54,506 bases of DNA, from sequence record SRR16203515_2613. The stretch is one strand, 5' to 3'. Under the pieces are notes generated by a model. The model saw only the letters and a list, made by a program, of their open reading frames with translations, was not told the DNA's origin and did no database searches. This document shows, in pieces, positions 10,267-43,838 of the stretch; within the stretch, counting starts at the first letter, position 1; each line of letters starts with the position of its first letter. Position numbers and translations under genes: made by a program.

Positions 10267-10364
10267 GGTAGGGGATTTCCACAATCAGATCTAAAGCAAG
10301 ACGTCACTTTAGAGATAAATAGACCGAAGCTAAAGCACTTTTACATTAGCATCGATTCATAAAT

Positions 10365-10400: not shown

Positions 10401-10403
10401 TAA

Positions 10404-14187: not shown

Positions 14188-14222
14188 CTTGAGATCACGT
14201 TTGATGAAGGCGAATTTTTGAG

Positions 14223-15260: not shown

Positions 15261-15285
15261 TCTGTGCGGCGATAGCAAAAGATAC

Positions 15286-27706: not shown

Positions 27707-27730
27707 GGCATTTGAGAAATATTAAACGTT

Positions 27731-28861
27731 ATGGGATTACATAAAGAACTAGACGGTTTGCTTGTGGTCTCGATGGATCAAGCAGTGGCGGCACCCTATT
27801 GTGCATTGATGCTGGCAGATGCCGGCGCTCGCGTAATAAAAGTTGAACGCAAAGAAGGGGACTTCGCGAGAGGATATGACAAGGGCGCTGACGGCAAGAG
27901 CGTTTTTTTCTCTTGGCTCAATCGCGGCAAGGAATCAATCTGTGTCGATATTAAAGACGCTAACGACGAACAGTTGCTACGTTCGATGTTAAGCCGTGCC
28001 GACGTATTTCTGCACAACCTTGCACCCGGTGCATTAGTCAGGCGAGGGTTTGGTGGAGACGTTTTGCGTGAGACGAACCCTGGTCTTATTACCTGTGAGA
28101 TTAACGGCTACGGCACGACCGGGGATTGGGCGCGAAAAAAAGCCTATGACGCCTTAGTGCAGGCGGAAAGCGGTATTTTTTCTGTTAACGGAACCCATGA
28201 GCATCCCTCTCGAGTCGGGATTTCAATTTGTGACATCTCGTCTGGGCAGACGGCTTTTTCTACGATTCTTCGTGCGCTAATACAACGAGGTGTTACAGGA
28301 GTTGGAATTGATATTTCAATATCAATGTTCGATGTGATGGCGGACTACATGAATTTTCCGTTGCTGTCACACCGCTATCTGGGTCAGGCGCCCGGACGAA
28401 TGGGCATTACCCATCCCCTAATTGCACCATATGGGGCTTACCCGGCTAAAGGCGGCCAGCAAGTGATGATTTCGATTCAAAGTGATCGAGAGTGGCAGCA
28501 TTTTTGCGCTCTGGTATTGAATCAGCCTGAGCTTGGTAAAGATTCACGCTTTGCAGACAATACACATCGCGTAAAGAATCGCAATGAAATGGATAAAGCG
28601 ATCAATTCAACTTTCAGCGTCCACGATATTGATGAGCTGATTAGCATTCTTGATCAAGCGAAGATTGCAAACAGTCGACTCAGTAGTGTTTCTGATCTTT
28701 CAGATCATGAGTTGATTCGAAACGTAGTAGCTGATTTCGATGGCACTGAAGTCAGTATGGCAGATCTCCCTGTTGAGACTGATGCCGATCGGCCTAGAGT
28801 GGTCCCCACTTTGGATCAACATGGGCCAGCAATTAGATCCGAATTTTCCCCAGAGCATTAG
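27731..28861 (+). CDS. CaiB/BaiF family (class III) CoA-transferase
   Basis: QAVAAPYC..LADAGARVIKVER..GDFARGYD, WLNRGKES, KAYD..VQAESG, IAPYG. Confidence 0.9.
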   Translation: MGLHKELDGLLVVSMDQAVAAPYCALMLADAGARVIKVERKEGDFARGYDKGADGKSVFFSWLNRGKESICVDIKDANDEQLLRSMLSRADVFLHNLAPGALVRRGFGGDVLRETNPGLITCEINGYGTTGDWARKKAYDALVQAESGIFSVNGTHEHPSRVGISICDISSGQTAFSTILRALIQRGVTGVGIDISISMFDVMADYMNFPLLSHRYLGQAPGRMGITHPLIAPYGAYPAKGGQQVMISIQSDREWQHFCALVLNQPELGKDSRFADNTHRVKNRNEMDKAINSTFSVHDIDELISILDQAKIANSRLSSVSDLSDHELIRNVVADFDGTEVSMADLPVETDADRPRVVPTLDQHGPAIRSEFSPEH

Positions 28862-28870
28862 AAATCGAAT

Positions 28871-30043
28871 ATGAGTATAAAACCGCCTACCTATAGCCTT
28901 GATCACCCCGAGATAAGAGAGAGCGTTTCACGTCTTTGTGCTGATTTTCCCGGAGAATACTGGCGGCGATGTGACCGAGAACAGGCTTACCCCAGTGAGT
29001 TCGTGCAAGCACTGACAGCTGCCGGTTTTCTGAGCGCTTTGATCCCCGAGCAATACGAGGGTTCAGGGTTGCCGCTTTCAGCAGGCGCCGCGATTTTGGA
29101 AGAAATCCACCGTTCGGGGGGCAACGCGGGTGCTTGTCATGCGCAGATGTATACGATGGGCACCTTGCTGCGTCACGGCTCTGAGACCCAAAAAGAAACT
29201 TATCTGCCAGCAATCGCCCGGGGAGAGCTTCGACTTCAGGCTTTTGGGGTGACAGAGCCTACCAGTGGTACCGATACATCGTCATTAAGAACAACAGCGC
29301 GTCTGGACGGCGATCATTTTGTTGTCAATGGCCAAAAAATCTGGACGTCACGATCTGAGTATTCAGATTTAATGATTCTGTTGTGTCGGACTACGCCTCA
29401 AGATAAAAGTCAGAAGAAGACGGATGGGCTTTCTGTGCTACTGGTCGATATGCGCGAGGCAAGGGATAAGACGCTGACGATCCGCCCGATTCGCACAATG
29501 ATGAATCATGCGACGACCGAGATCTTTTTTGATGATATGCGGGTGCCAGCCCATCATCTGATTGGTGAAGAAGGAAAAGGTTTTAGATACATTCTCTCCG
29601 GCATGAATGCTGAGCGGATTCTGATCGCAGCGGAATGTATTGGCGATGCAAAGTGGTTTATTGAGAAAGCAACAGCGTATGCGGCTGAACGTTCAGTTTT
29701 TGGTCGGCCGATTGGCCAGAATCAGGGCGTTCAGTTTCCGATCGCGCGAGCATATGCCCAGATGCGGGCGGCGGAGCTCGTTCTGCGTGAAGCGATACAA
29801 CTCTATGATGCAGGTGAGAATCCGGGCGAAGAGGCGAACTTGGCCAAAATGCTCGCAGCCGAAGCATCCTGGGCGGCAGCGGAGATGTGTGTCCAGACTC
29901 ACGGCGGATTTGGTTTTGCAGAGGAGTATGACGTTGAGCGAAAATTCCGCGAAACACGACTTTATCAAGTGGCCCCAATCTCTACGAATCTGATCCTAAG
30001 CTACGTTGGCGAGCATGTGCTGGGTTTGCCACGGTCGTACTAA
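28871..30043 (+). CDS. Acyl-CoA dehydrogenase family protein
   Basis: FGVTEPTSGTD, NGQKIW, FGRPIGQNQGVQF, QTHGGFGFAEEYDVERKFRE. Confidence 0.92.
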   Translation: MSIKPPTYSLDHPEIRESVSRLCADFPGEYWRRCDREQAYPSEFVQALTAAGFLSALIPEQYEGSGLPLSAGAAILEEIHRSGGNAGACHAQMYTMGTLLRHGSETQKETYLPAIARGELRLQAFGVTEPTSGTDTSSLRTTARLDGDHFVVNGQKIWTSRSEYSDLMILLCRTTPQDKSQKKTDGLSVLLVDMREARDKTLTIRPIRTMMNHATTEIFFDDMRVPAHHLIGEEGKGFRYILSGMNAERILIAAECIGDAKWFIEKATAYAAERSVFGRPIGQNQGVQFPIARAYAQMRAAELVLREAIQLYDAGENPGEEANLAKMLAAEASWAAAEMCVQTHGGFGFAEEYDVERKFRETRLYQVAPISTNLILSYVGEHVLGLPRSY

Positions 30044-30061
30044 CTGTAATAAGAACTAAGC

Positions 30062-30928
30062 ATGACAGAAGAATACAACCAGAGTGCGCAGTCTCGCCGA
30101 AGTTTTATTTTTGCTCCCGGGTTGAGGCCAGAGTTGTATCCAAAGGCCTTGGCGAGCGGTGCTGATATTGTGTGTGTGGAACTCGAAGACGGGATCGCAC
30201 CGCATGATAAGGATGAAGCGCGGGAAAAGACCCTGGCGCTTTTTGCTGAACCGCAGGCCAATGACGGAGTCGAGCGGATTGTTCGTATTAATTGTCTGCG
30301 GTCAGTTGTCGGGCTGGACGATGTTAAGGCAATTCTTGCGACAGAAACGCCGCCGCCGGCATTGATGCTACCGAAGGTGGTTTCTCCGGATGAAGTGGTT
30401 TGGCTTGATGATCTGCTTACTGAGCGTGGTCACGATACCCGTCTGCATATCATCATTGAGATGAATGCCGGTCTCGAAGCCGTTTTTGACATTGCCCGAT
30501 CGAGTTCTCGTATCGATGCGCTGTTCTTTGGTGGAGTGGATATGGCGGCAGATCTGAGATGCAAGAATGCTTGGGAGCCGTTGCTCTATGCGCGATCCCG
30601 GGTTGTGCATGCCGCCGCCAGTGTCGGCGTGGATGCCGTGGATGTGCCTTATTTGGATCTTGAAGATTTGGAGGGCATGAAGATCCAGGCTCGCCAGGCC
30701 AGAGATCTCGGTTTTAGCGGTAAGGGAGCCATTCATCCTAAACAGATTGCTGATCTTAATGAGGTGTTCACGCCCTCGGCAGAGGAGGTCGCCCGGGCTC
30801 GTAAAGTCGTTACTGCTTTTGAGGAGGCCAACACCGGACTCGTAGTCGTGGATGGAAAGCTAATTGAAAAGCCGGTGGTCCGGGAGATGCAGCGAATTCT
30901 CTCCGTGGCGGATCGTGCCGGGGTCTAG
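30062..30928 (+). CDS. CitE/HpcH-HpaI family CoA-ester lyase (citramalyl/malyl-CoA lyase-like)
   Basis: RRS.IFAPG, SGADIVCVELEDG, VRIN, GGVDMAADL, GKGAIHPKQ, VDGKLIEKP. Confidence 0.88.
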   Translation: MTEEYNQSAQSRRSFIFAPGLRPELYPKALASGADIVCVELEDGIAPHDKDEAREKTLALFAEPQANDGVERIVRINCLRSVVGLDDVKAILATETPPPALMLPKVVSPDEVVWLDDLLTERGHDTRLHIIIEMNAGLEAVFDIARSSSRIDALFFGGVDMAADLRCKNAWEPLLYARSRVVHAAASVGVDAVDVPYLDLEDLEGMKIQARQARDLGFSGKGAIHPKQIADLNEVFTPSAEEVARARKVVTAFEEANTGLVVVDGKLIEKPVVREMQRILSVADRAGV

Positions 30929-30946: not shown

Positions 30947-31891
30947 TTAACTGAAACACGCGTTGAGCGCGTCAGCGCCATCACGCAGTGCTTCGGTGGC
31001 CTGATTGAGCATACGGCTGTAATGGATAAAACTATGCAGCACCCCCGGATAGATTTTCAAAGTCGCTGGCCGACCCTCTCTTTCCATGGCCTTGTAAAGC
31101 GCTATCGAATCATCCTGTAGCGGGTCGCATTCGGCCGCTGCGATGAAGGCGCGTGGTAGTAAGCCGATGCCTCCTTTTAAAACATTGAATCGAGGATCAT
31201 TTCTGTCGTGGGCGTCGCCCAGGTAACTCGTCAGGTAGAACTCTTTTTCCTCGCGGGTAAATTCGAACTCCGCGTTGCCGTACTGCTGCCAGGATGCTGA
31301 CTCGGTTAGGCCGTACGCGCCGTAGTAAAGGAGCAGGAACTGAATCAGTCCAGGACTTTGCTGGTGACAGAGTTGGGTGACCGAAACCGCCAGGTTTGCA
31401 CCAGCAGAATCTCCCCCAATTCCCAGCTGGGTGCTATCAAGTCCGTGATCTGGACCGTGAGCCTGTAACCAGTCGAGCACGGCTCGCACTTCATTGATCG
31501 CCACTGGAAACTTGTATTCGGGTGAGAGTGCATAGTCGACGCCAACAACCCGAGCGCCAGAGAAGTCAGCCAGCAGCCGCATCACCCGGTCATGGGTTTC
31601 AAGATTCCCGAGGATCCAGCCGCCACCATGAAGGTATAAAAGAGTGGGTCCCTGATCTAGATCACTTGGCTTGTAAACACGTATCGGTATATCCCGTACC
31701 GGTCCCGCAACGTGTGTGTTTATTACATCATGCATCTCAGGCTTGAGTTCGTTCCACCAGGCGCGCTCGGCGTTATACGCATCTCGAACTCCGTTGAGAG
31801 TGAGGTCTGCTACGTCACTCGCCCCGTCAGTTAGCGTCGCGCGTTTTTTCATGACCGCGATCATCTGGGGATCCAGTGTCACGTGGGTCAA
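30947..31891 (-). CDS. Alpha/beta hydrolase, HSL/Aes acetyl esterase family
   Basis: HGGGW oxyanion motif, GDSAG nucleophile, DPL, GVLHSF. TTG start overlaps the GcvT-family stop. Confidence 0.88.
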   Translation of the reverse strand: MTHVTLDPQMIAVMKKRATLTDGASDVADLTLNGVRDAYNAERAWWNELKPEMHDVINTHVAGPVRDIPIRVYKPSDLDQGPTLLYLHGGGWILGNLETHDRVMRLLADFSGARVVGVDYALSPEYKFPVAINEVRAVLDWLQAHGPDHGLDSTQLGIGGDSAGANLAVSVTQLCHQQSPGLIQFLLLYYGAYGLTESASWQQYGNAEFEFTREEKEFYLTSYLGDAHDRNDPRFNVLKGGIGLLPRAFIAAAECDPLQDDSIALYKAMEREGRPATLKIYPGVLHSFIHYSRMLNQATEALRDGADALNACFS

Positions 31892-34332
31892 CCTTTTATT
31901 CGCGAGGATGCGGGGTCATAGAGCGGCTCCAGGTGAAGTGAGCAGGGTACTCGGGTGCCGGCGATCTCCAGACTGTAAGCGCCACGCTCAAGATATTCTC
32001 GATCGACGCCGTCGGCATTCCGTACATAACCATAACCAATTGGGCGACCGATCGTGTGTCCAAAACCTGCGCTTGTCAGCCAGCCAACGCGCTGATCATC
32101 TCTGAAAATGGTCTCGCGTCCAATCAGATTGATGTTCGAATCGTCTGTTGTAAAACAGGCGAGTTGTTTCTTTACCCCCTCACGTTTCTGTTGCAAGAGA
32201 GCTTCCTTGCCCAGGAAGTCCGTTTTGCCCGTCAGTTTGACCGCCCAGCCCAACCCGGCTTCTAAAGGGGTATGGTCTGGCGAGAGATCTGACCCCCACG
32301 CCCGGTAGCCTTTCTCAAGTCTCAGGCTTTCAATAGCACGGTATCCGGCGTTGCGGATGCCGAGGTCAGCTCCCGAGGTTATCAGCGCCCGATAAACATC
32401 GAGTGCGTGATCAATCGGAATATGCAATTCGTAACCGAGCTCGCCTACATAAGTGAGTCGAACTGCCGTGATGACAGATGACGTTACTTGCAGTTGTCGT
32501 GAGGCGGCAAAGGGCAGGGCAGTATCGTCTACATTCTCCGAAGCGACACGGGCCAGCAGTTCACGAGATCGCGGGCCCATGACGGATAAAACCGCGAAAC
32601 GGTCAGTTTGATCTGTAATCCTGACATCAAGGTGCTCTGGTAGGCTGCGCTGGATCCAGTGATAGTCATGAGTAACAAATCCAGTGCCGGTGACAAGATA
32701 AAAACGATCCGGGGCCAGCCGAGTTACGGTCAGATCGCTTTCAATACCGCCGCGGCTGTTGAGAAGCTGGGTATAGATCACCGATCCCACTGGCCGATCA
32801 ATGCGGTTAGCGCAGATCCACTCTAAAGCCCGGGCACTGTCCGCTCCCTCGACGATGAACTTGCCAAATGAGGTTTGATCAAAAACTGCAACTGCTTCGC
32901 GCGCCGCCCGGTGTTCATCGCCGGAGTAACGAACCCAATTTTGTTCACCAAAACTGTACTCGTCCTCAGGCGTTACACCCTCGGGCGCAAACCAGTTTGG
33001 CCGCTCCCAGCCGAGTTTTTCTCCAAAGCATGCGCCCTGGGTTTTAAGTTCTTCATATAAAGGGGAACAGCGGAAGGGTCGACCGGACTGATGTTCCTCA
33101 TGCGGCCACGCCATGGTGTAGTGCTTGCCGTACATTTCATGGGTGCGCTCACGAACCCATTCGATCTCGGAATGAGGTTTGCCAAAGCGGCGGATATCGA
33201 CGGGCCAAAGATCAAAAGGAGGTTCACCTCCCGCAATCCACTGGGCCAGCGCCTGCCCAGCGCCACCTCCAGCCGCAATGCCAAAAGCATTAAAGCCTGC
33301 AGCGACATAAAAGCCAGTAAGTTCCGGCGCCTCACCCAGGATAAAGTTGCCATCAGGCGTAAAACTCTCAGGGCCATTGAGCAGCTCCTTGATACCGGCA
33401 TGGGCAAGGGCGGGAACCCGCGGTAGCGCCTGTACCATCAGTTGCTCAAAATGATCCCAGTCTGAGTCCAGCAGTGAAAACGCAAAATTTTCCGGAAAGC
33501 CCGCTTGTGCCCAGCCCACCGGGTTGGGTTCGTAGCCACCCATGACAAGGCCGCCGACTTCCTCTTTGAAGTACGTTAAACGATCAGGATCCCTCAGTGT
33601 GGGAAGATCGGACGTGACACCATCGATAGTCTCGGTAATAAGGTACTGATGCTGCACAGAGACCAATGGCACATTAACCCCTGCCAACTGACCGACTTTC
33701 CGTGCCCATTGCCCGGCACAGTTGACCAGAATTTCGCAATCCACAGGACCCGAAGAAGTGTCGATACCGGTTACGCGGCCGTTTTCAGATCGCACACCAG
33801 TCACTTGGATGTTTTCAAGAATCGTTACGCCGTGATTGCGGGCACCTTTTGCAAGTGCTTGGGTAATGTCGGACGGACTCGCTTGGCCGTCTGAAGGCAA
33901 AAATGCTGCGCCCAGGACATCACCAGTATCCATCAGCGGCCATAGATCTTTTGCTTCAGATGGCGTCAGAAGATGCATTTCAAGGCCGAAACTGCGTGCG
34001 GTTGTTGCCTGGCGTGCAATCTCGGTCATTCTGGATTCATTGCAAGCAAGACGCAGACCGCCATTCATCTTCCAGCCGGTAGATAGTCCTGTTTCGGCCT
34101 CCAGCCGGTCGTACAGGGCGACAGAGTTGCCCAGTAATTGCGTAATGCCGGCTTGTGAACGCAGTTGGCCCACTAATCCGGCTGCGTGCCAAGTACTGCC
34201 GCTGGTCAATTGGTGTCGTTCCAGCAGCAGTACATCTTTGTACCCCAGTTGGGCCAGGTGATACGCTGTCGAGCATCCGGCGATTCCGCCACCGATGATT
34301 ACGACCTGGGCGTGTCGCGGCAGGGTTGTCAT
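31888..34332 (-). CDS. FAD-dependent GcvT-family amine dehydrogenase (dimethylglycine/sarcosine dehydrogenase-like)
   Basis: IIGGGIAG, GSTWHAAG, GPESFTPDG, GWERP.WF, YVGELGYEL, LRLEKGY, C-terminal THF-binding domain. Start at ATG 34332. Confidence 0.92.
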   Translation of the reverse strand: MTTLPRHAQVVIIGGGIAGCSTAYHLAQLGYKDVLLLERHQLTSGSTWHAAGLVGQLRSQAGITQLLGNSVALYDRLEAETGLSTGWKMNGGLRLACNESRMTEIARQATTARSFGLEMHLLTPSEAKDLWPLMDTGDVLGAAFLPSDGQASPSDITQALAKGARNHGVTILENIQVTGVRSENGRVTGIDTSSGPVDCEILVNCAGQWARKVGQLAGVNVPLVSVQHQYLITETIDGVTSDLPTLRDPDRLTYFKEEVGGLVMGGYEPNPVGWAQAGFPENFAFSLLDSDWDHFEQLMVQALPRVPALAHAGIKELLNGPESFTPDGNFILGEAPELTGFYVAAGFNAFGIAAGGGAGQALAQWIAGGEPPFDLWPVDIRRFGKPHSEIEWVRERTHEMYGKHYTMAWPHEEHQSGRPFRCSPLYEELKTQGACFGEKLGWERPNWFAPEGVTPEDEYSFGEQNWVRYSGDEHRAAREAVAVFDQTSFGKFIVEGADSARALEWICANRIDRPVGSVIYTQLLNSRGGIESDLTVTRLAPDRFYLVTGTGFVTHDYHWIQRSLPEHLDVRITDQTDRFAVLSVMGPRSRELLARVASENVDDTALPFAASRQLQVTSSVITAVRLTYVGELGYELHIPIDHALDVYRALITSGADLGIRNAGYRAIESLRLEKGYRAWGSDLSPDHTPLEAGLGWAVKLTGKTDFLGKEALLQQKREGVKKQLACFTTDDSNINLIGRETIFRDDQRVGWLTSAGFGHTIGRPIGYGYVRNADGVDREYLERGAYSLEIAGTRVPCSLHLEPLYDPASSRIKG

Positions 34333-34381
34333 ATTGATAGTCTTCCTCGGGAATTTGTGGTGTGGTCGTCTTTGAATACTT

Positions 34382-35257
34382 TCAGACGGAAAAAGAATTC
34401 CATTGCTGGTCAAACCGCTCCAGGTTTTCACGGGTGTAGTCTACAAAGTCGAAATCGAGTTGGGAGTGAATTTCGGACACCATGCTCCAAAGTGTTTCTC
34501 TCAGTAATGACGCACACTTCATCGCCTCAAATCCATGTCGAGTTTGATCAGAAATGGGACCGTTAAAGTAGCGTTGTAGGAGCCAATCCTCCTGATTTCG
34601 GGTGAGACCATTATTCGATGCCAGATTGGCGAGATCAAAAAGTGGACTGTTGTAGCCAGCGTAGTCCCAGTCAATGAGCCAGAGCCGGTTGCCATCGTCG
34701 ATAAAGTTAGCAGCCAGAAGGTCATTATGTCCGTAGACGATATCAACCGATCCGACGGCCGCCTCAAGAACCGCACCTTTTTCCTGTAGCGCGGGTAGCA
34801 TGTCGCTCAAGCGACTCCCATCATTTCGGAGTGTCCCTAGGTAATCGCGGATGACGTGAAAGACCCAGAAGATAAGAGCCGGACCCCGCATCTGTTGGGC
34901 CAGTTCCCGATGACAGGTGTGCAGCATCGGTAAGATTCGCTCAAGATATACATCCTGCCTGATTTCTGCCTCAGTGAGGGTCTTGCCTTCGATGAAATTA
35001 AGGATCAGCACTCCTGGCGCGTGGTATGCCACGTCGGGGGAAAGACCGACTTTGGCTGCTGCGATACTGGCCTCAAGCTCGTTAAATCGCATAACGCCGT
35101 GGAGCGGAATATCGTTACCCATGCGGACAAAGAATTTTTGACCTTGGTTGGTTACAACGAAATTCTGGTTGGTGATGCCGCCCTCGATGGGTTCAAGCGT
35201 GATACCCCCTTTCCAGAAGTCCAGTTCCCGTATTTGTTGTTCAAGTGTTTTACGCAT
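34382..35257 (-). CDS. Choline/ethanolamine kinase family phosphotransferase
   Basis: GGITNQN, Brenner motif HNDLLAAN, LIDWDYAG...PLFDLA. Confidence 0.9.
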   Translation of the reverse strand: MRKTLEQQIRELDFWKGGITLEPIEGGITNQNFVVTNQGQKFFVRMGNDIPLHGVMRFNELEASIAAAKVGLSPDVAYHAPGVLILNFIEGKTLTEAEIRQDVYLERILPMLHTCHRELAQQMRGPALIFWVFHVIRDYLGTLRNDGSRLSDMLPALQEKGAVLEAAVGSVDIVYGHNDLLAANFIDDGNRLWLIDWDYAGYNSPLFDLANLASNNGLTRNQEDWLLQRYFNGPISDQTRHGFEAMKCASLLRETLWSMVSEIHSQLDFDFVDYTRENLERFDQQWNSFSV

Positions 35258-35277
35258 AGCAAGGATTCACGGTTGTT

Positions 35278-37281
35278 TTAAGACTGAAGCCCAAACTCCA
35301 TTCTCTTTCTTTGTGCCCACCGATTGATCAGGCGGTCAGCCACGATGGCAATACAGGCAACGCCGATGCCGGCAATAATGCCCCGACCTGTATCTGCTTT
35401 GGTCAGGGCGATATAGACCTCTTGTCCAAGGTCCCGGGTTCCCACCAATGCCGTGATCACCAGCATGGAAAGCGCCATCATGATTGTCTGGTTTATTCCG
35501 AGCATGATCTGAGGCAAAGCAATGGGAAGTTCGATGCGCCATCGGATTTGAGTCCGGGTACAGCCGATTGCTCGCGCCGCTTCAATCAGATGCGTGGGAA
35601 CTTGCTCAATTCCGAGGATGGTATAGCGGATAGCAGGTGCAAGAGAGTAGGCAATCACAGCCAGCATCGCTGCAAAATCGCCAACCCGAAACAACATGAC
35701 GACCGGTATCAGGTAGACGAACGACGGCAGGGTTTGTAGCGTGTCAATAAGGGCTTGAGTTACGCGGTTTAGTTTTGAGTGGGAAGCGGCTAGGATGCCT
35801 GCCGGAATACCGATACAAGCCGCAAACAGAACCGAAACGCCGCAAAGATAGACCGTGATCATGGCTTTCGTCCATAGCCCGGTCACCGCTATGAATAAAC
35901 TGAGCACGGTGGTCAGCGCGGCTAGCCGTAACCCCCCTAGCCGAAAACTGACCAAAGCAATCAGTGCGACCACAACGCTCCACGGAGTGTTCAGCAGGAA
36001 GCGTTTGACCGGGATCATGATGTGAATCAACACGAAGGTTTTAACGGCTTCAAGTTGATCGAAAAAATTAATGTTGATCCACTTAACTGCTGCATCCCAG
36101 AAATGACTTGTTGTGACCTGAAGTGACTCTGGAAAAATAGCGAGCGCCGGGAAAAAATGAGCGGCTAGCCAGGAGACAATAAGAATCAGAATGATCAGCG
36201 CGCCAAAACGGGGGCCCGTTAGGAATTCGGAACTGTCCGCCCGTGCGGATTTTGTCGAGCGACTGTTGTATGCCTGTCCTAATCGGTCCAAGGCGATGGC
36301 GAGTAGCGTTATCGCAAGACCGGCTTCAAGGCCATCACCGATCGCGAGCCTGCGAAGAGAGCTGAGGACATCAAAACCAAGGCCTCCTGCGCCGATCATT
36401 GACGCGATGATCACCATGTTCAATGAAAGCATGATGACCTGATTGATGCCGACCATGAGGGAATTTCGTGCAACAGGAACTTGAATTTTGCGGAGCAGTT
36501 GCCGTCGGCTGCAGCCAGCCATGTCACCGTACTCAATCAATTCTTCGGGTATCTGGCGGAGCGACAGGATCGTTACTCTAACCATTGGAGGTGTTGCGTA
36601 GATCATCGTGGCAATCATTGCCGCAACCGGTCCAAAGCCGAAAAGAAATAGAACCGGTACCAGATATGCAAATACAGGGACCGTTTGCATAAGATCAAGT
36701 ACCGGGGAGAGCATGCGCTCCAGAAGGGGGTGGCGGTAGGCGGTGATACCGAGCGCAAAACCTATTCCTACACCTAGCGGAACAGCAATAATGATTGAAC
36801 TCAAAGTCACCATGGCGCTTTGCCACTGACCAAAAATAACAAGGTAGAAAAAGCAGCCCGTGACAAGGAGGGTCAGGCGAATTCCGGAAAGCTGGAATGC
36901 GAGCAGACCGACAATGCTTACAATGGCAATCCAGGGTGCCGGCGGTAGGATAATAGGCGCCCCCGGTTCGGTCGAGAAAGTAAAACCGGTGGCAAGGAAG
37001 CTGTTGGCAATCGATAACGGCCACTCGAGCACCCATGCTATTGAGCGAGTAAGCTCCTTAAAGGTAAAAAGACCAAGGTCAAAATCTTTGATCAGCCATT
37101 GCATAAGATCGCTGATCCAGAATCTAAGCGGAATGATCCAGTCTTTAGGGTACTTCACTAAAAAGGGCGTGAGTTCCTTGTTTAGATATAACAGAATGCC
37201 GAGACAAAAAATGACGGTTAACGAAAGCCAGAGCCCCCAGCGGAATTTGACGGGAGCCTCGGGAATCGGGATTGATTGCAT
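35278..37281 (-). CDS. ABC transporter permease, ProW-like with two fused TM domains
   Basis: Two QT.P.F.YL.P motifs, each followed by GINQ.IM..LSM. Confidence 0.92.
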   Translation of the reverse strand: MQSIPIPEAPVKFRWGLWLSLTVIFCLGILLYLNKELTPFLVKYPKDWIIPLRFWISDLMQWLIKDFDLGLFTFKELTRSIAWVLEWPLSIANSFLATGFTFSTEPGAPIILPPAPWIAIVSIVGLLAFQLSGIRLTLLVTGCFFYLVIFGQWQSAMVTLSSIIIAVPLGVGIGFALGITAYRHPLLERMLSPVLDLMQTVPVFAYLVPVLFLFGFGPVAAMIATMIYATPPMVRVTILSLRQIPEELIEYGDMAGCSRRQLLRKIQVPVARNSLMVGINQVIMLSLNMVIIASMIGAGGLGFDVLSSLRRLAIGDGLEAGLAITLLAIALDRLGQAYNSRSTKSARADSSEFLTGPRFGALIILILIVSWLAAHFFPALAIFPESLQVTTSHFWDAAVKWININFFDQLEAVKTFVLIHIMIPVKRFLLNTPWSVVVALIALVSFRLGGLRLAALTTVLSLFIAVTGLWTKAMITVYLCGVSVLFAACIGIPAGILAASHSKLNRVTQALIDTLQTLPSFVYLIPVVMLFRVGDFAAMLAVIAYSLAPAIRYTILGIEQVPTHLIEAARAIGCTRTQIRWRIELPIALPQIMLGINQTIMMALSMLVITALVGTRDLGQEVYIALTKADTGRGIIAGIGVACIAIVADRLINRWAQRKRMEFGLQS

Positions 37282-37283
37282 TG

Positions 37284-38330
37284 TCAGTACGAGCCGGCAG
37301 GCTCTCTGCCTACGAGCACATTCAGAACAGATTGTCGGTCAATCACTCCAATAACCGATCCGGTGTCGTTAATCACACCGATCGGGTCTTCAGAATGGAC
37401 TGCCTGATCTGCAAATTCCTGAACTTTAGCGTCGTGTCTTTGCAACTCCCGAAGCGTGTCTTTCTCGTTTGATGCCAGAGGTCTCATGACCATCCGGGCT
37501 GAGAAGACTTTTGCGCGGGAAACATCCCGCGTAAATTCAGCGACATACTCTGTCGCGGGGTTGATAATGAGGTCTTCAGGTGTCCCGATCTGAATGACAG
37601 CCCCATCCTTCATGATTGCGATCCTGTCAGCTAATCGGATAGCTTCATCAAAATCATGGGTGATAAATACGATTGTTTTTTTCAGAATGTCCTGCAACTT
37701 TAGAAACTCGTCCTGCATTTCCCGCCGGATGAGCGGATCCAACGCTGAAAATGGCTCGTCAAGAAACCAAATATCAGGCTCCACTGCCAGTGATCGCGCA
37801 ATACCGACACGCTGTTGCTGGCCGCCTGACAGTTCACGGGGATAGTAATCCTCCCGTCCAGACAAACCGACCAGAGAAATCATTTCGCGAGCTCTTTGTT
37901 CCCGGGTTTTCTTATCGATACCTTGAATCTCGAGGGGAAAGGCGACGTTTCCAAGGACTGACATATGGGGTAAGAGCGCAAAATGTTGAAATACCATACC
38001 CATCTTATGTCTACGAATCTGGATAAGTTCATCCTCGGAAGCCGAGAGAAGGTTCTGACCGGCGAACATGATCTCTCCAGCAGTGGGTTCGATCAGGCGA
38101 CTCATGCATCGGACTAGCGTTGATTTCCCGGAACCGGATAGCCCCATGATGACGAAAATCTCTCCATTGAAAATATCGAGCGTGACGTCACGAACGGCTG
38201 GAATCAGGCCAGCATCGTTTAATTCAGTGAGCGAAGGTGACCTGGAAGTTTTTTCCAGTAAGTGGGAAGCATCATCGCCAAAAATCTTCCAGATGTTTCG
38301 GAGTTGTAGCGCTGGTTTTACTTTCGACAT
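37284..38330 (-). CDS. Glycine betaine/proline-type ABC ATP-binding protein (ProV-like)
   Basis: GLSGSGKS, LSGGQQQRVG, DEPFSALDPLIR, CBS-like tail. Start placed at ATG 38330 because the track TTG at 38372 lies in the terminator tail. Confidence 0.9.
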   Translation of the reverse strand: MSKVKPALQLRNIWKIFGDDASHLLEKTSRSPSLTELNDAGLIPAVRDVTLDIFNGEIFVIMGLSGSGKSTLVRCMSRLIEPTAGEIMFAGQNLLSASEDELIQIRRHKMGMVFQHFALLPHMSVLGNVAFPLEIQGIDKKTREQRAREMISLVGLSGREDYYPRELSGGQQQRVGIARSLAVEPDIWFLDEPFSALDPLIRREMQDEFLKLQDILKKTIVFITHDFDEAIRLADRIAIMKDGAVIQIGTPEDLIINPATEYVAEFTRDVSRAKVFSARMVMRPLASNEKDTLRELQRHDAKVQEFADQAVHSEDPIGVINDTGSVIGVIDRQSVLNVLVGREPAGSY

Positions 38331-38378
38331 TCCGATTGCTGTACTTTGGTGATTTGTAAGATTGATAGACAAACAACA

Positions 38379-38409
38379 TAGCAGGTGGCTCGCGAAGAAC
38401 CACCTGCTA
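38379..38409 (-). terminator. Stem-loop after the SBP gene
   Basis: TAGCAGGTGG/CCACCTGCTA arms; followed by TGTTGTTTGT on the minus strand. Confidence 0.75.
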
Positions 38410-38441
38410 CTTTTTGGAGCCCGAACTGGAAGTGAGGGCCT

Positions 38442-39395
38442 TTAGTTACACTGGGTCCACGGCTCCCAAGTTGCCTTATTGGCATCCAGCCATGCCGAAA
38501 CGACGTCCGCTATTTTTTTGCCTTCAAGGTCTACCTCAACGATCATCTGGCCAATCGTGGGGTTATCGATTTCAAAGTTACGAACCGCTTGATACGCGCA
38601 GGGCCATTTGGCTTCGCCTCCTTTCCAGCCGACTTTTTTGATCCAGCCCCTGGGTTTCCCGCAGTCATAGGCCATGTTGGTGTTTAAGCCAACACTCGGA
38701 TCTTCATAGCAGGCGTCACTGTAGGGTGGAAACTCGATAAATTCCCCTTCGAATTTCACCGTCGACCAATGAGGATGATAGACCCAGCCGATCCAAGGGG
38801 CTTTACGCTGGTAAGCTGATTCCAGCTCGGCCCAGAGTGCCGCATCCGTGCCGGCGTGGACGACTTCGAAGTCGAGTCCGAGCGCTTCAACTCGTTCTTC
38901 GTCGAAGCCCGCCCAGGTGACAGGTCCGCCCAGGTATCTTCCGGCCGGCGCGGTCTCCGGTGTTGAAAACGCTTCCGCGCATTCGTTCAATGCTTTCCAG
39001 TCAGGGAGACCTGGACATTTTTCTTTCATATACATGGGGTACCACCATTCCTCGATGGCGTTCATTCCTGTCTCACCGAGATCAACTGTTCCCCCAGTGC
39101 CCAGGCTGGCTTCCATGGCCTGCTTGCCCGTGGTTTCCCACATCTCCATCGCAATATGCAGGTCGCCGGACTCCAGTCCTGCGAACTGTGCGATGTAGTC
39201 GGCTTGTTGATATTTGACGTTATAGCCCATGTTTTCCAGGATTCGACCCATCAGCTCGGTGTTGATCAGCTGACCCGTCCAGTCGTGAAGCGTAAGGATA
39301 ATGGGATCTTTCGACTCGACTGCCATGGCAGCGTTTGAGAACAGTGCGCTTGCGAGGAGCGCAACAAAAAGTCTTTTTATCTTGCTAAAAAGCAT
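38442..39395 (-). CDS. Betaine/TMAO-type ABC substrate-binding protein (TmoX-related clade)
   Basis: Signal peptide; HDWTGQ, EEWWYP.YMKEKCPGLPDWKALNECA, GPVTW, YDCG; GGGAGG RBS. Confidence 0.88.
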   Translation of the reverse strand: MLFSKIKRLFVALLASALFSNAAMAVESKDPIILTLHDWTGQLINTELMGRILENMGYNVKYQQADYIAQFAGLESGDLHIAMEMWETTGKQAMEASLGTGGTVDLGETGMNAIEEWWYPMYMKEKCPGLPDWKALNECAEAFSTPETAPAGRYLGGPVTWAGFDEERVEALGLDFEVVHAGTDAALWAELESAYQRKAPWIGWVYHPHWSTVKFEGEFIEFPPYSDACYEDPSVGLNTNMAYDCGKPRGWIKKVGWKGGEAKWPCAYQAVRNFEIDNPTIGQMIVEVDLEGKKIADVVSAWLDANKATWEPWTQCN

Positions 39396-39569
39396 TGGAA
39401 TTCCTCCCGTTAGTTAAATACTTTTATTATTGCTAAGGACAACGCCTTAACGATAAGAGAATTACACAAAATAGCATATAAATAAACAAAAAAATCGGAT
39501 TTAGAAACGAAATCCACAGTAATATCCACAATATTACTCAATTTGATCAGTTTTGAAGATCTGAAAAAT

Positions 39570-40346
39570 ATGGCGCTCGTCAGTAAATACGAAGCCGCGA
39601 TCATGGACGCGCTTAATCTCTGTGGCCAGGTCACCATCAATGACCTTGCAGTTCAGTTGGGCGTGTCAGGAGAGACCGTCAGACGACACGTCGATCCTTT
39701 GGTAAAGCGAGGCCTTGCTTTAAGAGTGCATGGTGGAATTATTGCCCCCATTTCGACTCAAGAAGCGCCCTTTCATCGCCGCCTTAGAAAAAATCTTGAT
39801 GCCAAACGCAGATTGGCCAAAACGGCTTCCGAGTTGATAAAGGACGGAGACTCATTGATTATCGATTGCGGCTCAACGACAGCCTATGTTGCTCAGGCAC
39901 TATGTGATCACAGTGGCTTGAACGTTGTGACTAACTCTATTGAGATTGCACGCACGTTGGCCTCCCGAAACGGGAATCGTACTTATGTCACTGGCGGCGA
40001 GCTGCGAGCTGATGATGCCGCGGCTTTTGGTAAGGGTGCAATCGATTTTATCCAGCAGTTTAATGTCGACTATGCCATTCTCTCCGTTGGCGCCATTAAT
40101 AGAGGCAACGAATTCCTGGACTTCCATCTGTGTGAGGCAGAATTCTCCAGGGCTGCAATCGGCCAGGCTCGGAAGAGTTGTTTTGTTACTGACAGTTCCA
40201 AATTTGACTCTGATGCGCTGGTAAAAGTCTGCGGCCTCGATGACGTTGATATCGTGGTGACTGAAGCCCAGCCTCCAGCTTCTTTCCGGGAAGCTTGTGA
40301 ACTCAGTGAAACCCGTTTGTTCTTTCCCGTTGAGGACTTAACGTAA
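39570..40346 (+). CDS. DeoR/GlpR family transcriptional regulator
   Basis: LGVSGETVRR HTH, RVHGG, IDCGSTT, VVTNS, DSSKF. Start placed at ATG 39570. Confidence 0.92.
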   Translation: MALVSKYEAAIMDALNLCGQVTINDLAVQLGVSGETVRRHVDPLVKRGLALRVHGGIIAPISTQEAPFHRRLRKNLDAKRRLAKTASELIKDGDSLIIDCGSTTAYVAQALCDHSGLNVVTNSIEIARTLASRNGNRTYVTGGELRADDAAAFGKGAIDFIQQFNVDYAILSVGAINRGNEFLDFHLCEAEFSRAAIGQARKSCFVTDSSKFDSDALVKVCGLDDVDIVVTEAQPPASFREACELSETRLFFPVEDLT

Positions 40347-40358: not shown

Positions 40359-41270
40359 TTATTTACGCACGGTGTTGGGAAGCACTTTGGAAATAATGTT
40401 GCAAAAAATTTGGAGTGCTGCTTCTCGGGGAAAACTGTTTCGGTAAACTAATCTGACTTCTCTAATCGCATTTGGAATCTCGACTTTTCGCAGAATCACT
40501 TTGTCTGTTGCCAGGCGGCCGCCGTGCACAGAGAGCGCGGGCACGAGTGTTACGCCAAGCCCCATACCAACGAGTTGTACCAGTGTCTCGAGGCTCGACG
40601 CATTGAGTTTGGGCATGGGATACGAGGAGTCCTCTCGTTGAATTCGACAGGCACTAATCACTTGCTCAGACAGGCAGTGCTCTTGAGACAGCAAAAGTAT
40701 TTTTTCATGCTTGAGATCATTTAAGGTGATTTCATCTTTTTCGTACAAGTGATGATCTCGTGGGTGTGCCAGCCAGAACGGCTCTTTGAATAATTTAATC
40801 TGCTTTAGGCCATCGCCCGGAGGGGCAGTCGCAAGAAGCGCGCCGTCGATTTGATGAGCACGTATCTTTAAAAGTAGTTGCTCGGTTGTCGATTCAGTGA
40901 GTTCCAGTGACAACTCGGGATGTTGTCGTTGCAGCTCGAGCATAAACAATGGCACAAGATAGGGGCTTAGCGTGTGGATTGCGCCAATACGAAGCGGACC
41001 TGCGAGGGGGTCATGCTGCGCTTTGGCAAGGCTTCGCATGACGTCTGCCTGTTCGAGAATTTTTCGAGCATGCTCGATCATGGTTTCACCCATGGGCGTG
41101 ATGTGGACGCTACGATTCGTTCGCTCAAAAAGCATCACGCCCAGCTCCTGTTCAAGCTTATTGATTTGCCCTGAAAGGGTGGGCTGGCTGACAAAACAAC
41201 GCCGCGCCGCTTGCCCAAAATGCAGTGTTTCACCTACCGCAACCAGGTATTCGAGGTCTTTAAGGTTCAT
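40359..41270 (-). CDS. oxyR: Hydrogen peroxide-sensing LysR regulator OxyR
   Basis: HFGQAARRCFVSQPTLS HTH; HCLSEQVISAC has both redox Cys 9 residues apart (C199/C208 equivalents); ASSLETL. Confidence 0.9.
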   Translation of the reverse strand: MNLKDLEYLVAVGETLHFGQAARRCFVSQPTLSGQINKLEQELGVMLFERTNRSVHITPMGETMIEHARKILEQADVMRSLAKAQHDPLAGPLRIGAIHTLSPYLVPLFMLELQRQHPELSLELTESTTEQLLLKIRAHQIDGALLATAPPGDGLKQIKLFKEPFWLAHPRDHHLYEKDEITLNDLKHEKILLLSQEHCLSEQVISACRIQREDSSYPMPKLNASSLETLVQLVGMGLGVTLVPALSVHGGRLATDKVILRKVEIPNAIREVRLVYRNSFPREAALQIFCNIISKVLPNTVRK

Positions 41271-41277
41271 TTAAATA

Positions 41278-41314
41278 ATAGGAAAAAACTATTAATATTA
41301 TTATAACAAACGAT
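41278..41314. promoter_or_regulatory. OxyR binding site
   Basis: ATAG-N7-CTAT-N7-ATTA-N7-CGAT matches the ATAG-N7-CTAT-N7-ATAG-N7-CTAT consensus at 13 of 16 positions, in the oxyR/rbr divergent region. Confidence 0.8.
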
Positions 41315-41404
41315 TATACATATTAATATCTTGACCTTATATTACGACTTCCGGATGAAACGTACATCCGGAATTATTGATAAACAAACCTTACGGAGAA
41401 CGAC

Positions 41405-41824
41405 ATGTCACTTAAAGACTCCAAAACAGAACAAAATCTGAAGGACGCTTTCGCCGGTGAATCGCAGGCAAACAGGCGTTACCTTTATTTTGCTTCAAAA
41501 GCCGATGTTGAAGGTTACAACGACGTTGCTGCTGTGTTTCGATCGACTGCAGAAGGGGAAACAGGCCACGCGCATGGTCACCTTGAGTATCTTGAGGAAA
41601 CAGGAGATCCCGCAACGGGTCTGCCCATTGGTGGTACGTCCGACAATCTGAAAGCCGCTGTCGCGGGCGAGACTCATGAGTACACCGATATGTACCCCGG
41701 TATGGCGAAGACTGCTCGTGATGAGGGTTTCGATGAGATCGCTGATTGGTTTGAGACGCTTGGAAAAGCCGAACGCTCCCATGCCAATCGATTCCAGAAG
41801 GCTTTGGATTCATTAGACGGTTAA
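41405..41824 (+). CDS. rbr: Rubrerythrin, short aerobic type without a rubredoxin domain
   Basis: [41 protein letters not shown] di-iron motifs; no CxxC domain. Confidence 0.92.
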
Positions 41825-41842
41825 GAGCTGTTTATTTGACGA

Positions 41843-41881
41843 TGCGAGAAGCGTTTCGGCGCTTCTCGCAAATTTTTATTT
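41843..41881 (+). terminator. Intrinsic terminator/stabiliser after rubrerythrin
   Basis: TGCGAGAAGCG...CGCTTCTCGCA arms around a TTCG loop, followed by AATTTTTATTT. Confidence 0.8.
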
Positions 41882-41898
41882 AGATCGGTGAGTTAAAA

Positions 41899-43224
41899 AT
41901 GGAAGGAAGCTTAAGCGCCCCAATTCGTCATCCAATTGATTGGCTGAGTAAGGATTTTAATGACGAAGAGAAGTTAATGACGGAGCTTGAACGCGTGTTT
42001 GACCTGTGTCATGGCTGCAGGCGCTGTGTATCGCTGTGTGACAGCTTTCCCACCCTTTTTGATCTCGTTGATGAATCGTCGACGATGGAAGTCGACGGGG
42101 TCGACAAGCAAGATTACTGGAAAGTGGTCGATCAGTGCTATTTGTGTGATCTGTGTTACATGACCAAATGCCCTTATGTTCCGCCCCATGAGTGGAACAT
42201 AGACTTTCCACATTTGATGTTGCGGGCGAAATCGGTGCGTTACCAAAAAGAAGGCGCGTCCGCTCGCGACAAGATGCTCACAAGTACTGATGCGGTGGGG
42301 AAAACGGCCGGGTTGCCCGGCGTCTCTATTGTGGTTAATGCCTCAAATCGCACAAAACCGATCAGAAAAGCGCTGGAAAAAGTGGCAGGTATTCACGCTG
42401 ACGCCCGAATTCCACCTTTTGAGTCTCGTCCATTGAGAAAAAGGATCGCAAAACGATTAACTCCTCTGGGAGAGGGTGCTGTGCCGGGCAAAAAGACCAA
42501 AGGCAAAGTTGCACTTTTTGCAACCTGTTATGTCAATCGCAACGAGCCGGGCCTTGGGGAAGATCTGTTATCCGTGCTCGAACACAATAACATTCCAGTC
42601 TCGATTGCAGAAAAAGAGGCGTGTTGTGGAATGCCGAAGCTCGAGTTGGGTGATCTCAAGTCAGTACAGAAAGCCAAGGAGCAGAATATTCCGCATCTCG
42701 CCAAATGTGTTGATGAAGGCTGGGATCTGCTGGCGTTAGTGCCGTCCTGTGCGTTGATGTTTAAACAGGAGTTGCCGCTACTTTTTCCTGATGATCCCGA
42801 TGTCCAAAAAGTGGCCAATGCATTTTATGATCCTTTTGAGTATCTGATGTTGCGCCATACCGAGGGACTACTGAGTACTGAATTCCAGAATGAGCTTGGA
42901 ACCGTGGTTTATCACGCCTCCTGCCATCAGCGTGTCCAGAATGCGGGCCCCAAAACACGTGACCTTCTCTCGCTAATACCGGGTACAGAAGTCACCATGA
43001 TCGAGCGGTGTTCTGGTCATGACGGGACTTATGGCGTGAAAGTCGAAACGTTTGATAAGGCGATGAAAATCGGTAGGCCGGTGATCAACGCAGTGAAAAA
43101 AAATCATCCGGATCATTATGGCAGCGACTGCCCCATTGCGGGCCATCACATCGCCAATGGCGTTAGCGACGGTAGTGAGCCGGCACACCCGATTAGCCTG
43201 CTTAAACAGGCGTATGGCATTTAA
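41899..43224 (+). CDS. Fe-S oxidoreductase (GlpC/heterodisulfide reductase-like, rubrerythrin-associated)
   Basis: CHGCRRCVSLC and CYLCDLC...CP 4Fe-4S motifs; CCG domains (CCGMP, CSGHDG, SDCP). Confidence 0.9.
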   Translation: MEGSLSAPIRHPIDWLSKDFNDEEKLMTELERVFDLCHGCRRCVSLCDSFPTLFDLVDESSTMEVDGVDKQDYWKVVDQCYLCDLCYMTKCPYVPPHEWNIDFPHLMLRAKSVRYQKEGASARDKMLTSTDAVGKTAGLPGVSIVVNASNRTKPIRKALEKVAGIHADARIPPFESRPLRKRIAKRLTPLGEGAVPGKKTKGKVALFATCYVNRNEPGLGEDLLSVLEHNNIPVSIAEKEACCGMPKLELGDLKSVQKAKEQNIPHLAKCVDEGWDLLALVPSCALMFKQELPLLFPDDPDVQKVANAFYDPFEYLMLRHTEGLLSTEFQNELGTVVYHASCHQRVQNAGPKTRDLLSLIPGTEVTMIERCSGHDGTYGVKVETFDKAMKIGRPVINAVKKNHPDHYGSDCPIAGHHIANGVSDGSEPAHPISLLKQAYGI

Positions 43225-43247
43225 ATTAATTGATGACAGGAGTAACC

Positions 43248-43838
43248 ATGAACACGTTAACCCGAGAAGATCTTTTTTCTCTAGAAGCCTATTCGACCGA
43301 GCGACAAGCTTTCCGAGCAAAGGTGCTGGATCATAAAGCCCATCGGCGCGTTACCATCGGGAAGAATGCGACGCTGTATTTTGAGGATGCATTAACGATG
43401 CAATACCAGGTTCAAGAGATGCTCCGCATTGAGCGCATTTTTGAGGCCGGTCAAATCCAGGAAGAACTTGACTCGTACAATCCGCTTATCCCGGATGGGT
43501 CCAATCTGAAGGCGACTTTTATGCTTGAGTACCCCGAAGTTGACGAGCGCCGCGAAGCCTTGGCACGTCTACTTGGGGTCGAGAGATCGGTGTGGCTCGC
43601 AGTTGGGGAAAACGATCGTATTCGACCGATTGCCAATGAAGATCTTGAAAGGGAAACCAGCGACAAAACCTCGGCAGTTCATTTTTTACGCTTTGAATTA
43701 TCGGAGCAGGACATTGCCGGATTTAAAGGGGGCGCGGTAGTGCGCTTTGGTATTGATCACCCTGAGTACGCATATGAAACAGAGATCAGTCCAGAGGTGA
43801 AGCAATCATTAGCAGCGGACCTTCAGAGCGCGGTTTAG
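43248..43838 (+). CDS. DUF3501 family protein
   Basis: YQVQEMLRIER, YNPLIP, KTSAVHFLRF, DHPEY; AGGAG RBS before ATG 43248. Confidence 0.88.
   Translation: MNTLTREDLFSLEAYSTERQAFRAKVLDHKAHRRVTIGKNATLYFEDALTMQYQVQEMLRIERIFEAGQIQEELDSYNPLIPDGSNLKATFMLEYPEVDERREALARLLGVERSVWLAVGENDRIRPIANEDLERETSDKTSAVHFLRFELSEQDIAGFKGGAVVRFGIDHPEYAYETEISPEVKQSLAADLQSAV

Follow-up and report, generated by a model that had tools for sequence, protein, structure and literature searches.

A widespread bacterial operon that may import methylated ethanolamines and demethylate them as phosphate esters

The sequence record SRR16203515_2613 includes a stretch of DNA of 54,506 nt, here called the window, in which positions 30947-40346 are occupied by six genes on the minus strand, encoding the substrate-binding protein (SBP), the ATPase and the permease of an ABC importer, a kinase (KIN1), a dehydrogenase (DH1) and an esterase, and by a divergent gene for a DeoR regulator. 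This operon is real and widespread. As judged from sequence, there is about an even chance that it serves to take up and break down a small, positively charged N-methylated amino alcohol, with N,N-dimethylethanolamine and/or N-methylethanolamine as the likeliest candidates; which compound is used, in what order the steps run and what acts as inducer we infer from gene content, synteny, motifs and clade structure. In the proposed route, a TmoX-type ABC importer would bring the methylated ethanolamine into the cell, where KIN1 would phosphorylate its hydroxyl group and convert the alcohol into an acidic amine resembling dimethylglycine or sarcosine. DH1 would oxidise an N-methyl group of this phosphate ester, delivering the one-carbon unit to tetrahydrofolate (THF) and the electrons to the electron-transfer flavoprotein (ETF), and the DeoR repressor would probably sense one of the phosphate esters. 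Many relatives may finish the route with a HisN-like phosphatase and a further dehydrogenase-kinase pair, the products being first phosphoethanolamine and then ethanolamine; in the lineage of the window neither the second pair nor the phosphatase is in the cluster, and an Aes-type esterase would be co-transcribed instead. The features of the operon, with gene families assigned by Pfam and NCBIfam profile matches, are the following.

39543-40346, plus strand: DeoR/GlpR-family regulator (HTH_DeoR 38.9 bits, DeoRC 160.4 bits)
39396-39542, no strand assigned: divergent intergenic region of 147 nt with inverted and direct repeats, candidate operator
38442-39395, minus strand: SBP gene (OpuAC 154.6 bits)
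38378-38410, minus strand: intercistronic stem-loop 3' of the SBP gene (14 bp, 7 G-C, T-rich tail)
37284-38372, minus strand: ABC ATPase of the ProV type (proV subfamily TIGR01186, 360.3 bits against a cut-off of 326.6)
35278-37281, minus strand: permease of 667 amino acids (aa) with two BPD_transp_1 stretches (TIGR03416, 419.2 bits against a cut-off of 363)
34382-35257, minus strand: kinase KIN1, choline/ethanolamine-kinase fold (PF01633, 77.5 bits against a cut-off of 29; also an APH match)
31888-34332, minus strand: dehydrogenase DH1, 814 aa, longest open reading frame (ORF) 31888-34431 (DAO 243, FAO_M 78, GCV_T 267 and GCV_T_C 62 bits)
30947-31891, minus strand: cytoplasmic Aes/HSL-type esterase, last gene of the operon (Abhydrolase_3 184.8 bits)

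The seven genes that an initial annotation of this DNA had named were all found where it had placed them, with their families confirmed by these profiles, and the tight junctions that it had described were borne out. The gap between the ATPase and permease genes is 2 nt and that between the permease and kinase genes is 20 nt. The ATG at 34332 is most likely the start of DH1: a GAGGAAG ribosome site stands 8 nt before it, and the resulting protein of 814 aa has the length of the orthologues. With this start the gap between KIN1 and DH1 is 49 nt. The DH1 stop and the esterase start overlap by 4 nt (TTGA), and the esterase is predicted to be translationally coupled to DH1 in the window. The spacing between the SBP and ATPase genes, 69 nt when counted from the longest ORF, contains the stem-loop.

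When 185,579 species genomes were scanned with a pattern from 12 aligned kinase homologues, at least 593 kinase relatives were gathered; synteny was counted in the best 80 of these at least 593 loci, with neighbours taken as codon-usage-filtered ORFs clustered across loci and with denominators restricted to loci having enough flanking sequence (at least 2.5 kb for the downstream view, n = 65; at least 5.5 kb for the upstream view, n = 52). DH1 directly follows KIN1 in 47 of 65 loci, the SBP and permease genes lie upstream of the kinase in 25 of 52, a DeoR homologue is present in 28 of 52, and the full DeoR-SBP-permease-KIN-DH core occurs in 20 of 49. Carriers belong to the Alpha-, Gamma- and Deltaproteobacteria and the Acidimicrobiia, with one metagenome-assembled genome of the Terriglobia; they include cultured organisms (Kiloniella laminariae, Pelagibius marinus, Dongia soli, Hoeflea and Roseospira) and plasmid-borne copies (Ruegeria, Labrenzia and Salipiger). 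Since it recurs in related loci of several bacterial phyla, the gene arrangement is not due to chance, and the conserved core, as defined by these comparisons, is DeoR, a TmoX-like ABC importer, KIN1 and DH1. Genes for betaine or dimethylglycine are absent from this core among the clustered ORFs of the 80 loci. The further recurrent partners are only two, an IMPase-fold gene (11 of 80 loci) and a second dehydrogenase-kinase pair (10 of 80), in which the dehydrogenase, DH2, is 45-50% identical to DH1 and the kinase, KIN2, is 27-30% identical to KIN1. At two loci (L003 and L005) the kinase is immediately preceded by a LysR gene, without DeoR or importer genes in between, and loci that have the kinase only show as neighbours a DDAH/ADI-like, an arginase-family or a class I/II aminotransferase gene. 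The nearest genome used for comparison, G001, is 95% complete and its cluster proteins are 95-99% identical to those of the window.

The dehydrogenase is, in its build, a member of the dimethylglycine dehydrogenase (DMGDH) family: it matches the rat enzyme (PDB 4pab) with 563 bits, and the four domains of the family (DAO, FAO_M, GCV_T and GCV_T_C) are matched over their full length. Its His82, His261 and Tyr287, in the numbering of the longest ORF, align with the flavinylated His, which in dimethylglycine oxidase (DMGO) we take to be His48, and with the His/Tyr dyad of DMGDH and DMGO. In DMGO this catalytic dyad is formed by His225 and Tyr259 (PMC5082570). Membership of the family alone does not define "the" DMGDH of an organism, because G001 has sixteen matches to DH1 at E <= 1e-20, at about nine DMGDH-like loci. 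A tree was built of 46 DH1 sequences, 10 DH2 sequences and six G001 paralogues, with reference DMGDH sequences left outside it. DH1 falls on one side of a branch with support 100 and DH2 likewise with support 99, and both together are split from the six paralogues, themselves on long branches, by a branch of length 1.5 with support 100. The residues Gly88, Arg91, Thr97, Ser103, Arg140, Ser147, Phe148, Lys289, Gly299, Ala386 and Arg429 are invariant in DH1 and DH2 and lacking in all six paralogues. Among them, Arg91 lies nine residues past the flavinylated His, at a position held by His in rat DMGDH and by Asn in DMGO, and Lys289 lies two residues past the catalytic Tyr, where rat DMGDH, DMGO and the six paralogues have Arg. 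On this tree the kinase-linked dehydrogenases DH1 and DH2 form a clade of their own, apart from the six G001 paralogues, and genomic context and clade placement together argue against dimethylglycine or sarcosine as the DH1 substrate. The closest DH1 paralogue of G001, 44-47% identical, lies at 1.158 Mb (locus L092, G001:C1:1149000-1168900, positions 8750-15460); it is not kinase-linked, stands near an MttB homologue and is adjoined by ETF alpha and beta genes. Both this dehydrogenase and the MttB-family gene are split into two overlapping ORFs, which may be assembly frameshifts and not pseudogenes.

The kinase can be compared with LicA, whose choline contacts are Thr29, Asp176, Tyr197, Glu213, Trp251, Trp254 and Tyr268 (PMC4364537). 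KIN1 Thr29 (P-loop), Asp179 (Brenner motif), Tyr199, Trp257 and Tyr274 correspond to LicA Thr29, Asp176, Tyr197, Trp251 and Tyr268, and these five contacts are invariant in 12 aligned members of the KIN1 family; Trp254 is replaced by Val260 and Glu213 by Asn215, so that three of the four cage aromatics and five of the seven contacts are kept. An invariant Glu262 lies near Val260 in the sequence. The Brenner motif HxDxxxxN (H177-N178-D179 ... N184) and the choline-kinase motif (D196-W197-D198-Y199 ... N203 ... D208) are likewise invariant in the 12 sequences. Because two of the LicA contacts are altered, the ligand is probably not simply choline-like, and the pattern fits a cationic amino alcohol, which need not be choline itself. 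No NCBIfam equivalog fits KIN1; the nearest model, for KIN1 and KIN2 alike, is GntI (NF041256), the kinase of the pre-guanitoxin N-oxide, with 158.4 bits for KIN1 and 158 to 160 bits over the two kinases, and an identity of KIN1 with GntI was rejected since this lies far below the cut-off of 357. A second kinase of G001, of the KIN2 type and 56% identical to the KIN2 of locus L064, is found at locus L086 (G001:C1:2223000-2242900, positions 6995-14403); the gene before it is DMGDH-like and read as two overlapping ORFs, the end of the kinase gene overlaps an S-adenosylmethionine (SAM) methyltransferase gene, and a PhyH and two TauD-family dioxygenase genes come next.

The SBP of the importer matches Ruegeria pomeroyi TmoX (PDB 4xz6) with E 8.7e-85 and about 50% identity, and the permease is, from its two domain stretches, a fused double ProW-type protein. 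TmoX binds trimethylamine N-oxide (TMAO) and choline and does not bind betaine, carnitine, trimethylamine or dimethylamine, its pocket being formed by W55, W102, F106, E131, W177, F220 and W222, with E131 hydrogen-bonding the ligand oxygen, and pockets of this type are small and exclude carboxylates (PMC8918994). The window SBP keeps four of these seven residues (W55, W102, E131 and W177) and changes the other three (F106 to G, F220 to W and W222 to Y, at its own positions 90, 204 and 206). This altered pocket is itself conserved: among 33 cluster-linked SBPs, W102, E131 and W177 are kept and F220 is W and W222 is Y in all 33, W55 is kept in 31, the other two being alignment gaps, and the F106 position is G in 30 and A in 3. 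The TMAO demethylase gene tdm was not found in the window by profile matches, and G001 has a bona fide tdm at 1.70 Mb (1225 bits against a cut-off of 1100) that is directly adjoined by a different TmoX-family binder with an F..W pocket. Since tdm has its own TmoX-type binder, the SBP of the operon is to be regarded as a paralogue with its own specificity, predicted still to be for a small cation bearing an oxygen. The label "betaine-type ABC" used for this system at first was too broad, the SBP lying in the TMAO/choline-binding TmoX branch.

Some relatives carry genes that may act on the product. On the histidinol-phosphatase model the IMPase-fold partner (11 of 80 loci) reaches 251.5 bits, below the cut-off of 275; histidinol phosphate is an amino-alcohol phosphate, and by this score the partner resembles an amino-alcohol-phosphate phosphatase. 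On a plasmid of Ruegeria sp. AD91A a HisN-like gene directly follows DH1. The kinase matches 127 plasmid records, 78 of them from Rhizobium and Agrobacterium, and gene context was examined in two of the 127. The Agrobacterium tumefaciens plasmid NC_015184 (locus L082, 1466-13897) carries two kinases of the APH/choline-kinase fold together with a HisN-like phosphatase and the ethanolamine ammonia-lyase EutBC, and its cluster also has a peptide-type ABC importer, a DeoR gene and a Zn-dependent hydrolase.

Five arguments lead from these observations to phosphate esters of methylated ethanolamines. At nearly all loci the kinase gene stands closely ahead of the dehydrogenase gene; the IMPase-fold partner is like an amino-alcohol-phosphate phosphatase; and the Agrobacterium plasmid kinase keeps company with DeoR, a HisN-like gene and EutBC. 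The two paralogous dehydrogenases of some loci mirror the pair formed by DMGDH and sarcosine dehydrogenase (SARDH), which removes two methyl groups in turn. A flavin amine dehydrogenase needs the lone pair of the nitrogen (general flavoenzyme chemistry), which speaks for a secondary or tertiary amine as the substrate and against choline and TMAO. The initial annotation had proposed an undescribed route for an N-methylated amino alcohol in which a kinase is coupled to THF-linked N-demethylation; comparative evidence, namely the 47 of 65 pairings, the dehydrogenase clade and the altered TmoX pocket, speaks in its favour.

Other observations weigh against a methylated-ethanolamine route. Its substrate is assigned by family resemblance and context, and the residues Arg91, Arg140, Lys289 and Arg429, which may be candidates for a phosphate site, are picked out by the clade pattern. 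Two choline contacts of LicA are altered in KIN1 (Trp254 to Val and Glu213 to Asn), DH1 does not directly follow the kinase in 18 of 65 loci, and at four KIN-only loci (including L023 and L029) the neighbours are of a guanidino type (DDAH/ADI-like and arginase-family), and some kinases of this family may thus belong to the metabolism of guanidino compounds. Phosphorylating a substrate and then dephosphorylating it costs ATP, which is unusual for catabolism. A cluster-linked phosphatase is not present in the window or in G001, whose only strong HisN-like gene, at 882693, stands among unrelated genes, and EutB was not found in this 95% complete genome. The operon has a single dehydrogenase and would thus encode no more than a part of the route. 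The earlier description of the module as "complete" does not hold, since relatives often add the HisN-like phosphatase and the second dehydrogenase-kinase pair, neither of which is in the window, and no gene for phosphate removal or for use of the product is encoded in the cluster.

The best NCBIfam match of the DeoR protein is PRK10906, with 171 bits, below the cut-off of 331, and no equivalog cut-off is reached. Two repeats lie in the divergent intergenic region: AGTAATAT-N5-ATATTACT at 39518-39538, which is inverted and perfect over 8 nt, and a direct repeat of 12 nt at 39512-39535. The inverted repeat is kept in G001 with one change, and its core was found in none of the 92 fetched loci; the palindrome is a candidate operator. 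That the divergent DeoR protein senses a phosphorylated intermediate, as first suggested, is plausible on comparative evidence. Scans returned 4 promoter-like sites against a mean of 7.9 in shuffled sequence and 8 terminator-like sites against a mean of 10.4, and as such sites are no commoner than in shuffled sequence the stem-loop at 38378-38410 is to be taken as a lead only. Close copies of the window stretch are present in seawater and marine metagenomes and in RNA libraries, with rows from 15 studies, and contigs of four RNA libraries, which come from three studies, lie along the operon with at least 95% identity. Such contigs bridge the esterase/DH, DH/kinase, kinase/permease, permease/ATPase and ATPase/SBP junctions, the first of these in two runs; they do not prove that the genes share one transcript, and DNA may be present in RNA libraries. 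Two runs (X16 and X17) leave parts of the stretch without cover and are uninformative either way. These contigs suggest that the operon is probably expressed.

Among the alternatives, the nearest to the route proposed here keeps its mechanism and changes its substrate to another small hydroxylated N-methyl amine, such as an N-methylated aminopropanol, a serinol or homoserinol derivative or an uncatalogued seawater compound. The sequence does not fix the carbon skeleton, the Gly or Ala at the position of TmoX Phe106 might let a larger ligand fit, two of the seven contact residues of the kinase cage are not those of LicA, and genes for Fe-ADH, aldehyde dehydrogenase and class III aminotransferase lie near the cluster in 3 to 4 loci each. 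We consider such a substrate unlikely, given the small pockets of the TmoX type, which exclude carboxylates (PMC8918994), the Agrobacterium cluster that ties the kinase fold and a HisN-like phosphatase to ethanolamine ammonia-lyase, and an anaerobic precedent that concerns exactly the choline/dimethylethanolamine (DMAE) series (PMC12155760). A larger departure would be that the lineage of the window in fact uses an O-acetyl or other O-acyl ester of the amino alcohol, with the esterase as an obligatory first cytoplasmic step. Enzymes of the HSL/Aes type are recognised by an HGGG oxyanion motif, a GDSAG nucleophile elbow and a catalytic Asp and His. The translated esterase has intact motifs (LHGGGW, GGDSAG, CDPL and LHSF) and no signal peptide, and matches Aes (NF007547) with 295.5 bits, below the cut-off of 389; the 4-nt overlap with DH1, the RNA contigs across this junction and its position after DH1 in all five members of the lineage with enough sequence (L001, L002, L004, L005 and G001) also favour such a role. 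It is confined, however, to that lineage, being found in these four of the 80 loci and in G001 and absent from the other 76, and relatives carry a phosphatase, not an esterase, after DH1. Moreover, the seven SBP pocket positions, among them that of the Glu in contact with the ligand oxygen, do not differ between lineages that have the esterase and those that lack it, bar Ala for Gly at one position in 3 copies, so the imported ligand is probably the same free alcohol and the esterase would be a lineage-specific accessory. De-esterification as a general first step, as initially proposed, is therefore not upheld, and an obligatory ester in this lineage appears quite improbable.

Equally improbable, in our view, is that DH1 is an ordinary dimethylglycine or sarcosine dehydrogenase, that the kinase makes phosphocholine or phosphoethanolamine for lipids or the envelope, and that the two are adjacent through shared regulation by choline-type compounds. 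DH1 does have every domain and catalytic residue of DMGDH, with the high score against the rat enzyme already given, and the second G001 kinase of this fold, with its overlapping SAM methyltransferase, looks biosynthetic; TmoX itself binds choline (PMC8918994). Nevertheless, the many DMGDH-like loci of G001, the separate clade of the kinase-linked enzymes with invariant residues absent from six paralogues, the pairing of kinase and dehydrogenase across phyla, twice per locus in 10 of 80, and a conserved core without betaine or dimethylglycine genes all stand against it. An N-oxide or N-hydroxy substrate, of the TMAO or dimethylhydroxylamine type, whose N-O oxygen is phosphorylated as by GntI in guanitoxin synthesis, would be suggested by GntI being the nearest model for KIN1 and KIN2 and by the SBP being a TmoX paralogue that keeps the Glu in contact with the TMAO oxygen. 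The GntI score is far below its cut-off, tdm stands apart from the operon in G001 and has a TmoX-type binder beside it, TMAO offers no nitrogen lone pair to a flavin amine dehydrogenase and we know of no such natural substrate, all of which makes this the kind of explanation that would be surprising if true. Demethylation of a methylated ethanolamine as its phosphate ester is the reading retained here.

Many genes around the operon are, as assigned by Pfam and NCBIfam, for small solutes that are methylated or nitrogenous. On the plus strand at 26606-30928, dmdA (NF009133, 534 bits against a cut-off of 410) is followed by three genes of the same strand for a family III CoA-transferase, an acyl-CoA dehydrogenase and a CitE/RipC-like lyase; the four recur together in L001, L002, L004 and L005, and could be a variant for processing the product of dimethylsulfoniopropionate (DMSP) demethylation without a DmdB-type ligase in the operon. 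The window also has a BHMT-like gene, PhyH dioxygenases, arginase-family genes, hutU, hutH and a GMC oxidoreductase. At 40359-43838 an OxyR-like LysR regulator gene (251 bits, below the cut-off of 329) is divergent from genes for rubrerythrin, a GlpC-like CCG iron-sulfur protein and a DUF3501 protein. At 1747-6331 a HalD-like gene stands between two arginase-family genes and adjoins a PhyH dioxygenase and an SDR gene; this is, by its predicted gene content, another small-solute catabolic cluster.

The enzyme families of the operon are known, and the logic of kinase-primed demethylation is undescribed for aerobes. The literature searched, with subscription journals largely outside it, described no such pathway in aerobes and contained no characterised protein from the KIN1 or DH1 clade. 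If the reading is correct, it would provide an aerobic route for mono- and dimethylethanolamine, compounds made from choline by anaerobes; these also occur as lipid head-group intermediates (Pmt reactions). It would also give a function to one clade among the many DMGDH-like paralogues of marine heterotrophs and reveal an evolutionary trick in which a kinase turns an alcohol into an acid for an enzyme of N-methyl amino acids. A bolder extension, which we regard as possible but doubtful, is a "reverse phosphobase" pathway in aerobes of many phyla, in which methylated ethanolamines would be demethylated only as phosphate esters by the dedicated DMGDH-type clade, its anion site being retuned from carboxylate to phosphate (Arg91, Arg140, Lys289 and Arg429 being the candidates); where there is no phosphatase, the kinase may pass phosphate from the demethylated product to the next substrate, as MthK does. 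Dimethyl- and monomethylethanolamine (DMEA and MMEA) would then be an unrecognised source of one-carbon units and energy for planktonic marine heterotrophs, and the DMAE that anaerobes release on demethylating choline would find its aerobic sink in this pathway.

Several known systems resemble parts of the operon. The TmoXWV importer of Ruegeria pomeroyi and SAR11 (PDB 4xz6) has the same type of ATPase and fused permease; unlike it, the operon does not adjoin tdm, and its SBP has G/A, W and Y in place of F106, F220 and W222. LicA (PDB 4r77) shares the fold of KIN1, with the P-loop Thr, the Brenner Asp and the choline-kinase motif kept, whereas the PF01633 profile score of KIN1 is only 77 bits and two contacts differ (Trp254 to Val, Glu213 to Asn); moreover, LicA is biosynthetic, serving cell-wall phosphorylcholine, and KIN1 lies in an uptake operon with a demethylase. 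With DMGDH, SARDH and DMGO (PDB 4pab, 5l46 and 1pj5) DH1 shares the four-domain build, the flavinylated His and the His/Tyr dyad, but its clade is separate, always kinase-linked and marked by invariant residues that its paralogues lack, and its neighbours are an amino-alcohol-type kinase and an importer, not betaine genes. Methylation of phosphobases by PEAMT/PMT runs in plants, Plasmodium and nematodes. Its intermediates, phospho-mono- and phospho-dimethylethanolamine, would be those of the route proposed here, which would run in the opposite direction, with oxidative demethylation to THF instead of methylation by SAM, and with unrelated enzymes.

The closest precedent is anaerobic. In Eubacterium limosum the kinase MthK phosphorylates choline, only phosphocholine is demethylated, its methyl group going to THF, and DMAE is excreted as the product; the authors of that study argue that, once phosphorylated by the kinase, the alcohol is acidic and can be bound by an enzyme of the betaine type (PMC12155760). 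The MthK/MthB-MthC-MthA system, encoded by adjacent genes, thus shares with the operon described here the logic of a kinase acting first and of a phosphate ester demethylated to THF. The likeness is one of logic: no MttB-family methyltransferase, corrinoid protein or serine-kinase-related choline kinase was found in the operon by Pfam and NCBIfam matches. The E. limosum system (PMC12155760), whose enzymes are unrelated to those of the operon, is anaerobic and cobalamin-dependent, with an MttB-family methyltransferase where the window has the flavoenzyme DH1; MthK is related to serine kinases, whereas KIN1 has the choline-kinase fold; and its substrate is the quaternary choline, which a flavin amine dehydrogenase should not accept.

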